Shown one piece after another: positions 25,247-33,633 of a DNA stretch of 64,000 nt (its first letter is position 1; each line of letters starts with the position of its first letter). The notes beneath the pieces are model-generated. The model was not told the origin of the DNA, made no database searches, and saw only the letters and a program-made list of their open reading frames with translations. The position numbers and the translations under genes are program-made. Source of the DNA: Escherichia coli (GTDB lineage: Bacteria > Pseudomonadota > Gammaproteobacteria > Enterobacterales > Enterobacteriaceae); NCBI RefSeq assembly GCF_003334765.1, contig NZ_QOWT01000010.1; one strand, 5' to 3'.

Positions 25247-26089
<843 letters not shown>

Positions 26090-26105
26090 TTCCAGGGATT
26101 TATAA

Positions 26106-26864
26106 ATGAAACAAACACAACGTCACAACGGTATTATCGAACTGGTTAAACAGCAGGGTTATGTCAGTACCGAAGAGCTGGTAGAGCATTTCTCCGTCAG
26201 CCCGCAGACTATTCGCCGCGACCTCAATGAGCTGGCGGAGCAAAACCTGATCCTGCGCCATCATGGCGGTGCGGCGCTGCCTTCCAGTTCGGTTAACACG
26301 CCGTGGCACGATCGCAAGGCCACCCAGACCGAAGAAAAAGAGCGCATCGCCCGCAAAGTGGCGGAGCAAATCCCCAATGGCTCGACGCTGTTTATCGATA
26401 TCGGCACCACGCCGGAAGCGGTAGCGCACGCACTGCTCAATCACAGCAATTTGCGCATTGTCACCAACAATCTCAACGTTGCTAACACGTTGATGGTAAA
26501 AGAAGATTTTCGCATCATTCTCGCCGGTGGCGAATTACGCAGCCGCGATGGCGGGATCATTGGCGAAGCGACGCTCGATTTTATCTCCCAGTTCCGCCTT
26601 GATTTCGGCATTCTGGGGATAAGCGGCATCGATAGCGACGGCTCGCTGCTGGAGTTCGATTACCACGAAGTTCGCACCAAACGCGCCATTATTGAGAACT
26701 CGCGCCACGTTATGCTGGTTGTCGATCACTCGAAATTTGGCCGTAACGCGATGGTCAATATGGGCAGCATCAGCATGGTAGATGCCGTCTACACCGACGC
26801 CCCGCCGCCAGTAAGCGTGATGCAGGTGCTGACGGACCACCATATTCAACTGGAGCTGTGCTGA
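26106..26864 (+). CDS. glpR: DeoR-family glycerol-3-phosphate regulon repressor
   Basis: 252-aa ORF MKQTQRHNGIIELVKQQGYVSTEELVEHFSVSPQTIRRDL... Confidence 0.95.
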   Translation: MKQTQRHNGIIELVKQQGYVSTEELVEHFSVSPQTIRRDLNELAEQNLILRHHGGAALPSSSVNTPWHDRKATQTEEKERIARKVAEQIPNGSTLFIDIGTTPEAVAHALLNHSNLRIVTNNLNVANTLMVKEDFRIILAGGELRSRDGGIIGEATLDFISQFRLDFGILGISGIDSDGSLLEFDYHEVRTKRAIIENSRHVMLVVDHSKFGRNAMVNMGSISMVDAVYTDAPPPVSVMQVLTDHHIQLELC

Positions 26865-28444
26865 TCCTGCACGGCTTCCCACGTCAGACCAAAACGCGCC
26901 AGGTATTTGCGTAGCCGATCCGCGTCATTGACGCTGGCTTTGCCCTGGCGCGAAACGTCAAAAAGCTGGCGTCCGGCTGCGGAAAGCGACTTTGCCTGGC
27001 GGCAGATAGCGATAACGTGTTCCAGTTGCATACGGTCGAAGAGATCGATGTTTTCTGCCTCTGCGCCCAGCAACGCCGTAAGCGCGGAGGGGCGGCTCTC
27101 CTGCCAGTTATAGCGCAGACGGTTTATCTCATCTTCAACCACGTCCAGAGTGATGCGTCCGCTAGTGGCAAAGGTGGCCATCCGCGTGACGCTGGCAGAA
27201 AGTTCGCGAAAGTTACCGCGCCATGTTGCCTGGGGAGAGGTCGCAAAAGCCAACCAGGCGCGCCGCGCTTCGGTGTTAAAACGCACGCTGTCGCCAGTGA
27301 GTGAGGCGTGGCGCTCCACTTCATAATCCAGGTTCGGTTCAATATCTTCCTGGCGCTGGCGTAGACCCGGCAGGGTGAAGGTCCAGAGATTGATCCGCGC
27401 GTACAGATCTTCGCGAAATTTGCCTTCGGCAACCAGCTGGCGCAAATCGCGCACCGTTCCGGCGATAAGCTGAAAATCACTGCTCACCTGGCGATCGCTG
27501 CCAAACGGGTAAAAGGTTTTCTCTTCAATGGCTTTCAGCAGCATTGCCTGTTCGTCTGCGCCCAGTTCGCCAATCTCATCAAGAAACAACATTCCGCCGT
27601 TGGCGCTGCGTAATAAACCTTCACGAGATTCCCGCGCCCCGGTAAACGCGCCTTTTACATGACCAAACAGCGTCGACATGGCGGTATCGCCGCGCAGGGT
27701 GGCGCAGTTCACTTCCACAAACGCGCCGCTAAACTGATGCCGCGCCTGTTTTAACTCGAAGATGCGTCGCGCCAGAAATGACTTGCCCGCGCCGGTTGGA
27801 CCGTTAAGCAGAATCGGCGCGCGGGATTTGATCGCCACTTTTTCGATCTGCTCAATCATGCGGTTGAAGTGGGGGTTACGCGTGGCAATGCCGGACTTAA
27901 GAAAATCAAGCGTTTGCTGGCGTTCCTCGGCAAAGCGGCTGGCGATGGCGTTATAACGGCTTAAATCGAGATCGATAATCGTTACTTCACCTGGGCCGCG
28001 CGGCTGTTCTTTTTTGCGCGGAGGTGAAGATTGTATCAGCCGGGCGGGCAGGTAACGCGCTTCTGCCAGCAGAAACCAGCAAATCTGCGCGACGTGGGTA
28101 CCGGTGGTGATGTGAATTAAATAGTCTTCTTTTTCTGGCTGAAACTCGTAACCACGGGCGAAATCATGCAGGCAGGCGTAGACCTCTTCGAAATCCCACG
28201 GGTTATGCAGTTCAATCTCAACGCTCACCACTTCTGTTTCTGGCGAAACGCTGGCGATATCGCGTTTAAGCGTTTCAAATAGCGAGCGCGAGCGGGCGTC
28301 GTGCAACAATTCCAGTCGATCGATGACCAACGATTCTTGCTGGCATAAACAGAGTGTCGGACGCCATTTTGACCAGCGCTGACTGCCGCGCCCGGCATAA
28401 TCCAGTACGGTACCGACAAAGCCAAAAGCCACTGTTTTACGCAT
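26846..28444 (-). CDS. rtcR: Sigma54-dependent transcriptional activator of rtcBA
   Basis: 532-aa ORF with an AAA+ sigma54-interaction domain ([14 protein letters not shown] motif) and a C-terminal HTH; divergent from rtcB. Confidence 0.95.
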
Positions 28445-28578
28445 CTTAGATATCCTTATAAAAGACGATATTTCATTATCGGTAAATTGGCTTTGCGGGA
28501 AATCTCCGGTTACGGACGTAAAGATATAATCTTTTTTAAAACAATGAATTAAAAAATTAAGCTGCTTATTTAATTTTC

Positions 28579-28594
28579 TGGCACGACGGTTGCA
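28579..28594 (+). promoter_or_regulatory. Sigma54 (-24/-12) promoter of rtcBA
   Basis: TGGCACGACGGTTGCA matches TGGCAC-N5-TTGCA exactly, about 40 bp upstream of the rtcB ATG. Confidence 0.8.
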
Positions 28595-28632
28595 ATTATC
28601 AGGACAGCAAACAACGAAAAGAGAAAAACAAA

Positions 28633-29859
28633 ATGAATTACGAATTACTGACCACTGAAAATGCCCCGGTAAAAATGTGGACCAAAGGCGTGCTGGTAGA
28701 GGCCGATGCGCGTCAGCAACTTATTAATACGGCGAAGATGCCGTTTATTTTCAAACATATTGCGGTAATGCCTGATGTACACCTGGGTAAAGGTTCCACC
28801 ATTGGTAGCGTGATCCCGACCAAAGGGGCGATTATTCCGGCGGCGGTGGGCGTGGATATTGGCTGTGGAATGAACGCGCTGCGTACCGCGTTAACGGCGG
28901 AAGACCTGCCTGAAAACCTGGCAGAGCTGCGTCAGGCGATTGAAACGGCCGTGCCGCACGGGCGTACCACTGGCCGTTGTAAACGTGATAAAGGTGCCTG
29001 GGAAAATCCACCTGTTAACGTCGATGCTAAATGGGCTGAGCTTGAAGCCGGTTATCAGTGGTTAACGCAAAAATATCCCCGTTTCCTGAATACCAATAAC
29101 TATAAACACCTGGGAACGCTGGGAACCGGTAACCACTTTATTGAAATCTGCCTTGATGAGTCGGACCAGGTGTGGATTATGCTGCACTCCGGTTCACGCG
29201 GAATTGGTAACGCCATCGGGACTTACTTTATCGATCTGGCACAAAAAGAGATGCAGGAAACGCTTGAGACGTTGCCGTCGCGTGATCTGGCGTACTTTAT
29301 GGAAGGTACGGAATACTTTGATGATTACCTGAAAGCCGTGGCCTGGGCGCAGCTTTTTGCCAGCCTTAACCGCGATGCGATGATGGAAAACGTGGTAACG
29401 GCATTGCAGAGCATTACGCAGAAAACGGTCAGACAGCCACAAACGCTGGCGATGGAAGAGATCAACTGTCACCACAACTATGTGCAAAAAGAACAGCACT
29501 TTGGTGAAGAGATCTACGTGACGCGTAAAGGCGCGGTGTCTGCGCGTGCTGGTCAATATGGAATTATTCCCGGTTCGATGGGAGCAAAAAGCTTTATCGT
29601 CCGTGGGCTGGGAAATGAAGAGTCGTTCTGTTCGTGCAGCCACGGTGCCGGGCGGGTAATGAGCCGAACTAAAGCGAAAAAACTGTTCAGCGTGGAAGAT
29701 CAAATTCGTGCCACCGCGCATGTGGAATGCCGTAAAGATGCCGAAGTGATCGACGAAATCCCGATGGCGTATAAAGATATTGATGCGGTGATGGCGGCAC
29801 AAAGCGATCTGGTGGAAGTTATCTATACCCTGCGTCAGGTGGTGTGCGTAAAAGGATAA
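28633..29859 (+). CDS. rtcB: RNA-splicing ligase RtcB
   Basis: 408-aa ORF MNYELLTTENAPVKMWTKGV... with conserved metal-binding His/Cys residues. Confidence 0.95.
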   Translation: MNYELLTTENAPVKMWTKGVLVEADARQQLINTAKMPFIFKHIAVMPDVHLGKGSTIGSVIPTKGAIIPAAVGVDIGCGMNALRTALTAEDLPENLAELRQAIETAVPHGRTTGRCKRDKGAWENPPVNVDAKWAELEAGYQWLTQKYPRFLNTNNYKHLGTLGTGNHFIEICLDESDQVWIMLHSGSRGIGNAIGTYFIDLAQKEMQETLETLPSRDLAYFMEGTEYFDDYLKAVAWAQLFASLNRDAMMENVVTALQSITQKTVRQPQTLAMEEINCHHNYVQKEQHFGEEIYVTRKGAVSARAGQYGIIPGSMGAKSFIVRGLGNEESFCSCSHGAGRVMSRTKAKKLFSVEDQIRATAHVECRKDAEVIDEIPMAYKDIDAVMAAQSDLVEVIYTLRQVVCVKG

Positions 29860-30879
<1,020 letters not shown>

Positions 30880-30892
30880 TGCAGAGATGTAA

Positions 30893-30918
30893 GCCGGATC
30901 TGGCGCGTTATCCGGCTA
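30893..30918. repeat. REP-like palindromic hairpin between convergent rtcA and malT (probable terminator structure)
   Basis: GCCGGATCTGGCGCGTTATCCGGC, a degenerate REP-type palindrome. Confidence 0.4.
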
Positions 30919-30921
30919 AAC

Positions 30922-33633
<2,712 letters not shown>

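Follow-up and report, generated by a model that had tools for sequence, protein, structure and literature searches.

Positions 28579–28594 of the window, i.e., of the whole 64-kb stretch of Escherichia coli DNA that was analyzed, very probably hold the −24/−12 core of PrtcBA, the enhancer-dependent sigma-54 promoter of the rtcBA RNA-repair operon. The rtcBA promoter has already been characterized, and its recovery here is an ordinary finding and a correct annotation. Genschik et al. 1998 reportedly first described −24/−12 elements upstream of the mapped rtcBA start and are said to have shown the dependence of rtcBA on RtcR and sigma-54. The promoter itself changes nothing and stands as a confirmed entry of the E. 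coli sigma-54 regulon. In general terms, the rtc locus serves as a working model of CARF-domain signaling outside CRISPR and of stress-induced RNA repair, including tolerance to ribosome-targeting antibiotics. Beyond the literature that was examined, the only additions made here would be the proposed positions of an RtcR enhancer and of an IHF site, which may help in the design of reporters, in vitro transcription templates, and RtcR titration.

The annotated gene order around the core is glpD, glpE, glpG, glpR, rtcR (opposite strand), rtcB, rtcA, and malT (opposite strand), and positions 26000–31000 match several E. coli RefSeq genomes at 100%. The features of this neighborhood are as follows.

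26106–26864, plus strand: glpR, DeoR/GlpR repressor, 252 aa, intact (NCBIfam NF008154, 552.8 bits over the full length; RefSeq annotation)
26846–28444, minus strand: rtcR, sigma-54 enhancer-binding activator, 532 aa (NF038308, PF06956, PF00158)
28633–29859, plus strand: rtcB, RNA 3′-phosphate/2′,3′-cyclic-phosphate ligase, 408 aa (open reading frame, RefSeq annotation)
29863–30879, plus strand: rtcA, RNA 3′-terminal phosphate cyclase, 338 aa (NF003247, 780 bits versus a cut-off of 333; annotation)
30892–30917, no strand assigned: hairpin AGCCGGAT-N10-ATCCGGCT, read from the sequence, in the 42-bp gap between the convergent rtcA and malT stop codons
30922–33627, minus strand: malT (annotation)

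The glpR gene, which ends with a TGA at 26862–26864, is a convergent neighbor that lies outside the rtc module; its 3′ overlap with rtcR measures 19 bp when both stop codons are counted (26846–26864), exactly as the earlier note had it. In agreement with an rtcBA operon, rtcB is followed by rtcA on the same strand at tight spacing, and both diverge from rtcR. Only 3 nt separate the rtcB stop from the rtcA start, and an alternative ATG at 29860 abuts the rtcB stop (junction GGATAAATGATG), a layout that suggests translational coupling of the two genes. The rtcB product is named ‘RNA-splicing ligase RtcB’ in a 100%-identical RefSeq record and corresponds to b3421 in MG1655; its matches to RtcB-family NCBIfam models all fall under their curated cut-offs. 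The description of rtcR-rtcBA as a module of divergent activator, ligase, and cyclase, also put forward in the earlier note, thus stands by annotation, by NF038308 for RtcR, and by NF003247 for RtcA. Downstream of rtcA, the hairpin at 30892–30917, which we take to be REP-like and a terminator, is likely the end of the rtcBA transcript. An Rfam scan of 26000–31000 returned no family match, which argues that the E. coli rtc operon has neither Y RNAs nor leader elements.

The divergently encoded activator has the features expected of a sigma-54 partner. RtcR scored 852.4 bits against the NCBIfam equivalog NF038308 (cut-off 650) and is built, in Pfam terms, of an RtcR/CARF domain (PF06956, residues 2–185, 1.4e-85) and an AAA+ domain (PF00158, Sigma54_activat, residues 187–354, 9.4e-51), with a Walker A motif, GPTGAGKS, at 215 and the sigma-54-contacting GAFTGA at 265. 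The cognate AAA+ activator with GAFTGA that a sigma-54 promoter calls for is therefore present in divergent RtcR. No Pfam HTH was found in RtcR residues 444–532; in the literature, the RtcR C-terminal region is described as its DNA-binding domain.

Between the start codons of rtcR and rtcB, the following features were placed, with centers numbered from the predicted transcription start.

28453–28457, minus strand: probable rtcR Shine-Dalgarno AAGGA, 8 nt before the ATG
28457–28481, no strand assigned: candidate RtcR enhancer (UAS) TATAAAAGACGATATTTCATTATCG, from cross-species dyad enrichment
28500–28517, no strand assigned: Escherichia-only block AAATCTCCG(G/T)TTACGGAC, center about −94
28539–28551, plus strand: IHF-like site AAACAATGAATTA, one mismatch versus WATCAANNNNTTR, center about −60
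28579–28594, plus strand: sigma-54 promoter core TGGCACGACGGTTGCA, from the exact TGGCAC-N5-TTGCW match, ChIP-seq site OS35, and comparative data
28605, plus strand: predicted rtcBA transcription start (C), from the distances in PMC4591121 and the ApC/ATP priming in PMC9650030
28605–28632, plus strand: rtcBA 5′ leader, 28 nt, purine-rich, read from the sequence

The core lies 38 nt upstream of rtcB, within the 188-bp rtcR/rtcB intergenic gap, and comprises a −24 element TGGCAC, with its GG at 28580–28581, and a −12 element TTGCA, with its GC at 28592–28593. The 64-kb window contains no other exact match to TGGCAC-N5-TTGCW. The sigma-54 consensus and the correct spacing claimed for the core in the earlier note are both confirmed, the spacing being canonical. 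Exact matches are expected 0.10 times per window, and at least one arose in 10 of 100 dinucleotide shuffles. The earlier note had also proposed a weight-matrix scan for RpoN sites; with a matrix trained on the 41 other intergenic sites that Table 1 of PMC4591121 lists as bound by sigma-54 in E. coli, the core obtained the highest score in the window, 17.29 bits (training-site median 15.95), a value reached by 13 of 100 random 64-kb sequences. Relaxing the consensus to two or fewer mismatches gave 45 matches in the window versus 43.9 expected, and such matches are therefore uninformative. Taken by its letters and apart from its context, the core is a match at about p = 0.1 per window, i.e., only suggestive. 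It is the placement that makes the match non-random, since the chance expectation on the correct strand of the 188-bp gap is 0.10 × 188/128,000 positions, or about 1.5e-4.

Two further matrix matches were set aside. The second best in the window, at 4297–4313 on the minus strand (15.7 bits), lies in the Hcp/TssD-HNH gene region and was treated as chance because no activator is nearby and the site is absent from the ChIP-seq tables. An opposite-strand match at 28591–28607 (13.4 bits) reuses only the palindromic TTGCAA, without the −24 GG.

Published occupancy and transcription data bear directly on the same letters. The 17-mer CTGGCACGACGGTTGCA is site OS35 of the E. coli MG1655 sigma-54 ChIP-seq map (FAT 17), with rtcB as the downstream gene, an EcoCyc status of experimentally confirmed, and a distance of 28 nt from the predicted start to the rtcB start codon (PMC4591121). 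With an identical 17-mer bound and confirmed in this way, the proposal that the site drives rtcBA is upheld. In that map the start was set 19 bp past the motif center, which leads here to 28605, i.e., 28 nt before the ATG at 28633 and 12 nt past the C of the −12 GC, with A, C, and A at −1, +1, and +2 (28604–28606). The native promoter was transcribed in vitro using an ApC primer at −1/+1 and an ATP label (Kotta-Loizou et al., PMC9650030); the ACA at 28604–28606 fits ApC plus ATP, and thus PMC4591121 and PMC9650030 agree on the start. The leader that follows contains a weak Shine-Dalgarno-like AGAGA at 28620–28624. The epithet ‘textbook’, which the earlier note gave to this promoter, suits its core consensus but not its strength, as the native rtcBA promoter is very weak in vitro (PMC9650030). 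Compared to rtcBp of K-12, which is the same locus, the window shows no difference in the promoter: the rtcR-rtcB intergenic region is base-for-base identical to that of MG1655, and the 17-mer, the predicted start, and the 28-nt distance all agree. MG1655 glpR is annotated as a pseudogene, while glpR is intact in the window, so the window strain is not MG1655 itself.

We performed a comparative analysis of 34 loci selected by RtcR protein similarity and not by promoter sequence, of which 18, all full-length, were drawn from a scan that covered a single genome for each species and 16 came from plasmids or chromids. Most RtcR loci have rtcB or rtcBA on the divergent strand, and in 30 of the 34 a −24/−12 element was found on that strand, 122–213 nt from the rtcR start codon, with matrix scores of 11.5–18.9 bits; the scores on the rtcR-codirectional strand are far lower. 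The exceptions are loci from Desulfovibrio (L016), an Acinetobacter plasmid (L039), Variovorax (L040), and Phaeobacter (L041); at L039 and L040 the genes are arranged differently, and the RtcR proteins of L016 and L041 are more distant (43% and 48% identity). Within Escherichia, ten sequences were compared, namely six from E. coli (the window and MG1655 included) and four others, including E. albertii and E. whittamii. The core consensus positions are invariant in all ten, and the sole change within the 16-mer is at spacer base 28585 in one strain. Other polymorphisms among the sampled E. coli fall at 28602, 28606, 28483, and 28484, none of them at core positions.

Two competing accounts of the core deserve consideration. 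The motif might be a chance match to the sigma-54 consensus without promoter function, an idea that finds some footing in the frequency of exact matches (0.10 per window) and of equal matrix scores in random sequences; yet the exact sequence is occupied in published ChIP-seq and confirmed in EcoCyc, the core is invariant across Escherichia, has positional equivalents in most of the independently chosen RtcR loci, and adjoins the gene of a dedicated enhancer-binding activator. The occupancy and conservation data refute a chance match, whose probability we regard as negligible. Alternatively, sigma-54 might bind a poised, minor core while the main physiological expression of rtcBA comes from an RtcR-independent promoter. 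The weakness of the native promoter in vitro would fit, as would the finding that RtcB is not fully abolished in an rtcR-deficient strain (PMC5175333) and the RtcR-independent expression reported, and induction suggested, for Salmonella, the latter perhaps via alternative promoters (PMC9650030). From the residual RtcB and the Salmonella expression it follows that other transcription also reaches rtcB. However, the 175 nt upstream of rtcB, used as a reporter, gave RtcR-dependent activity (Engl et al., PMC5175333), and in Salmonella the equivalent core TGGCACGCTGGTTGCAAT is sigma-54-bound in ChIP-chip, and a constitutive activator raises expression of the operon 71-fold, an effect that depends on sigma-54. 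A scan of 28300–28750 found no sigma-70-type promoter at its threshold (a terminator scan of the same interval gave one terminator-like match, inside rtcB), and the conserved layout of enhancer, IHF site, and −24/−12 core argues for selection on the sigma-54 route. We therefore consider an RtcR-independent main promoter very unlikely and retain the core as that of PrtcBA.

The upstream elements of this promoter are less well defined. The rtc region is stated to contain an RtcR UAS and an IHF site in PMC9650030, which gives no sequence for either; its supplements name a UAS/nifH hybrid plasmid. A 2016 review gives the RtcR enhancer as ‘not known’, and a broad, unspecific literature search for papers on an RtcR footprint or palindrome found no enhancer sequence. 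The earlier note had pointed to 28445–28578 as the interval in which to look for an RtcR upstream activator sequence, and cross-species dyads now supply a candidate there, at 28457–28481. That the RtcR enhancer is this conserved array of GATA/TATC half-sites, spaced one helical turn apart and set against the rtcR start codon, is a proposal to which we give an even chance. In E. coli, the array consists of three half-sites 10 bp apart on one helix face (TATA at 28457, GATA at 28467, and TATC at 28477), i.e., TATA-N6-GATA-N6-TATC, in which two dyads share one half-site. Within it, CGATATTTCATTATCG at 28466–28481 is a perfect CGAT-N8-ATCG with its center at about −131 from the predicted start.

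The dyad was seen only through cross-species comparison; an inverted-repeat search of E. coli positions 28400–28660 returned only AT-rich repeats of low complementarity and missed the 4–5-bp dyad. All 4-mer dyads with spacers of 0–12 were searched in 14 non-redundant loci against 60 shuffles, and GATA-N6-TATC ranked first with 5 of the 14 loci, a count that no dyad attained in the 60 shuffles. As for the longer form, CGAT-N8-ATCG, a perfect copy was present at 6 of 30 non-redundant loci (shuffle mean 0.125, maximum 2), a figure that pertains to a motif defined post hoc from inspected sequences and to related loci that are not independent. Perfect copies occur in Escherichia (all but one of the ten sequences), Klebsiella, Intestinirhabdus, Superficieibacter, Ralstonia, and Phaeobacter, and copies with one mismatch in one Pseudomonas, one Burkholderia, and one Bosea. 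A natural variant, CGAG in place of CGAT at 28466–28469, was seen in the APEC strain E19019. The dyad always lies 22–33 nt from the rtcR start codon, while its spacers vary freely. In a held-out set, the dyad was present at the expected position in three of eight loci (shuffle mean 0.16; 0 of 2000 shuffles); counted anywhere in the gap, the same 3/8 compares to a shuffle mean of 1.0 and was reached in 125 of 2000 shuffles, which is not significant.

The stretch from the first dyad to the rtcR start holds a companion motif of opposite polarity, TATC-N6-GATA; 22 of 30 loci carry it when one mismatch is allowed (shuffle mean 2.3, maximum 8), and 8 carry it perfectly, versus a shuffle mean of 0.14. 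In other alpha-, beta-, and gammaproteobacteria, the related dyad TTATC-N6-GATAA extends over the ribosome-binding site of rtcR. No clear copy was seen at several deltaproteobacterial loci, although their RtcR has a conserved DNA-binding region. The dyad is AT-rich within an AT-rich region, and its half-sites partly overlap the conserved rtcR ribosome-binding region; a TATCC/ATCC block beside the rtcR start codon is conserved in nearly all orthologous loci. On the protein side, the C-terminal RtcR segment AGRxLFxVSR... is strongly conserved among orthologs wherever GATA/TATC dyads occur. Two RtcR-family proteins of Pseudomonas megaplasmids have a divergent C-terminal segment and, at the same place, different dyads, i.e., ATTCCACA-N16-TGTGGAAT and TCCATA-N17-TATGGA. 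If the array is indeed the enhancer, RtcR would activate rtcBA from about −131 while covering its own translation and transcription start, which would couple activation to autoregulation.

The dyads might instead be promoter or ribosome-binding signals of rtcR, or the operator of another regulator, with RtcR binding elsewhere, e.g., at 28500–28517. This concerns only the position of the enhancer and is a possibility to be taken seriously, if a somewhat doubtful one. In its favor, the half-sites on the left run into the Shine-Dalgarno region of rtcR, a clear dyad is missing from some loci whose RtcR has a conserved DNA-binding region, and on the minus strand the dyad reads GATAAT in enterics, resembling a −10 box. 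An rtcR −10 box was nonetheless rejected as the main explanation, since Ralstonia, Burkholderia, Bosea, and Phaeobacter keep the dyad but do not allow it to be read in this way; in Ralstonia and Phaeobacter, GC-rich spacers allow nothing like a −10 element. The block at 28500–28517 reads TCCGTTTACGGA in most strains, a short palindrome, and is invariant except for one G/T position in the ten Escherichia sequences, while its flanks vary; its conservation at about −94 would suit RtcR binding there, but it was not recognizable in Klebsiella, Intestinirhabdus, or Superficieibacter and is not conserved outside Escherichia. Moreover, the symmetry of the dyad is kept despite free spacers in alpha-, beta-, and gammaproteobacteria, its center at −130 to −156 is at the usual enhancer distance, and RtcR-family proteins with a different C-terminal region pair with different dyads at the same place, all of which speaks for the array at 28457–28481 as the candidate RtcR enhancer.

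Between this candidate and the −24 element falls the IHF-like sequence at 28539–28551, which we infer to be the candidate IHF site of PrtcBA. Of 22 non-redundant loci, 9 carry the perfect consensus WATCAANNNNTTR on the same strand as rtcB, with centers at −50 to −64 relative to the predicted start; shuffles averaged 0.26 such loci, and none of 1000 reached 9. The E. coli sequence takes the same position as the perfect sites of other genera and departs from them by one mismatch.

These elements can be joined into a proposed activation pathway. Sigma-54 RNA polymerase sits on the core as a closed complex that is unable to open by itself (its occupancy is known from published ChIP-seq). RtcR, whose divergent gene lies 134 nt upstream of the −24 element, would bind an upstream enhancer, presumably the phased TATA/GATA/TATC array at 28457–28481, centered at about −131 beside the rtcR ribosome-binding site. 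A bend at the IHF-like site (28539–28551, about −60), suggested by its position and conservation, would then join activator to polymerase. The CARF domain of RtcR keeps the AAA+ domain inactive, as constitutive N-terminal deletions in the literature show, until damaged RNA with a 2′,3′-cyclic phosphate end lifts the block; in Salmonella this RNA consists of tRNA halves or nicked tRNAs, and in E. coli RtcA and RtcB are needed as well. RtcR would then oligomerize, its GAFTGA loop would touch sigma-54, and ATP hydrolysis would open the promoter, as in the established family mechanism, so that transcription from about 28605 would yield the 28-nt leader followed by rtcB and rtcA.

The inducing signal was called incompletely understood in the earlier note. 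This remains a fair statement for E. coli, in which RtcA and RtcB are themselves needed for RtcR activation and tRNA fragments, although bound by the CARF domain in isolation, failed to activate the full-length protein in vitro (PMC9650030). The inducer is, however, better defined than that wording implies.

The closest known relative outside E. coli is Prsr of Salmonella Typhimurium (rsr-yrlBA-rtcBA, with divergent rtcR), whose core TGGCACGCTGGTTGCAAT compares to TGGCACGACGGTTGCAAT in E. coli. Both are served by the same activator, and sigma-54 occupancy and dependence have been demonstrated in Salmonella. The operons themselves differ: in Salmonella, rtcB is preceded by Rsr (Ro) and two Y RNAs and followed by a dinJ-yafQ cassette, whereas the E. 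coli operon consists of rtcB and rtcA only and, unlike that of Salmonella, has no Rfam RNA matches. Several of the loci compared above, such as L006, L018, and L009–L011, have about 2 kb between rtcR and rtcB, a spacing consistent with the Ro-containing form. Similar layouts are known from pspF-pspABCDE and norR-norVW, in which the activator is divergent from its target, an IHF site lies between enhancer and −24/−12 core, and the enhancer, about 100–150 bp upstream, overlaps the control region of the activator itself, as the candidate would here. The systems differ in what is sensed, i.e., damaged RNA by the CARF fold of RtcR versus the partner protein PspA or nitric oxide in the psp and nor systems. 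The candidate GATA/TATC half-sites also differ from the NorR (GT-N7-AC) and FhlA motifs (PMC4987338).

The rtcR-rtcB intergenic region was found in 4854 of 5426 complete E. coli genomes, and about 10.5% lack the rtc module. A loss this frequent, in roughly one complete genome out of ten, has to be kept in mind before Rtc phenotypes are extended from one E. coli strain to another. In one E. coli genome without the module, the loss is a single clean deletion of 26939–30739 with a 7-nt junction overlap, which removes the promoter and rtcB together with the greater part of both rtcR and rtcA.

In an alignment of 10 Escherichia sequences, one block of the rtcR-rtcB intergenic region is nearly unchanged, and the sequence flanking it is variable:

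28500-28517, AAATCTCCG(G/T)TTACGGAC, conserved block

In most strains, the block reads TCCGTTTACGGA, a short palindrome whose center lies at about -94 relative to the predicted rtcBA transcription start. No recognizable counterpart of the block was found in Klebsiella, Intestinirhabdus, or Superficieibacter. The intergenic region is the same as in K-12 MG1655 despite a difference next door: glpR (26106-26864) is intact here, encoding 252 aa, and is annotated as a pseudogene in MG1655.

The dyad of the candidate RtcR enhancer (CGAT-N8-ATCG, 28466-28481) has a natural variant in the APEC strain E19019, where the left half-site CGAT is replaced by CGAG at the position equivalent to window 28469, providing a ready-made test case for this candidate element. 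RtcR-family proteins with a different C-terminal DNA-binding segment (42-44% identity) are encoded at two Pseudomonas megaplasmid loci, L042 and L043. Both loci retain the divergent sigma-54 promoter, and other dyads (ATTCCACA-N16-TGTGGAAT and TCCATA-N17-TATGGA) lie close to the start codon of the rtcR-family gene, no more than 50 nt upstream of it.

Two further resemblances are probably fortuitous. The second-highest sigma-54 matrix score in the window (15.7 bits) belongs to TTGGCAGGCTACTTGCT, at 4297-4313 on the minus strand, within an Hcp/TssD-HNH gene region; this match is not among the sites of the published ChIP-seq tables (PMC4591121) and likely arose by chance. Similarly, the IHF-like site region AAAACAATGAATTA (28538-28551) recurs with 86% identity as AACAAAATGAATTA at 28627-28640, spanning the rtcB start codon; in AT-rich sequence, this likeness is probably accidental.

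Downstream, the 42-bp gap between the convergent rtcA and malT stop codons contains a hairpin that we take to be REP-like:

30892-30917, AGCCGGAT-N10-ATCCGGCT, hairpin

The rtc module is not universal in E. coli. Judged by the rtcR-rtcB intergenic region, present in 4854 of 5426 complete genomes, ~10.5% of complete E. coli genomes are without the whole module. In one module-less genome (locus L022), a single clean deletion corresponding to window 26939-30739, with a 7-nt overlap at the junction (L022 positions 4019-4025), has taken out rtcB, the promoter, and the greater part of both rtcR and rtcA, leaving as remnants 31 codons of rtcR and 47 codons of rtcA. Separately, insertion sequences (ISVsa5, IS1A) lie within the glpG-malT stretch that spans the rtc genes in some E. 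coli (strains BE311 and LF3-1).
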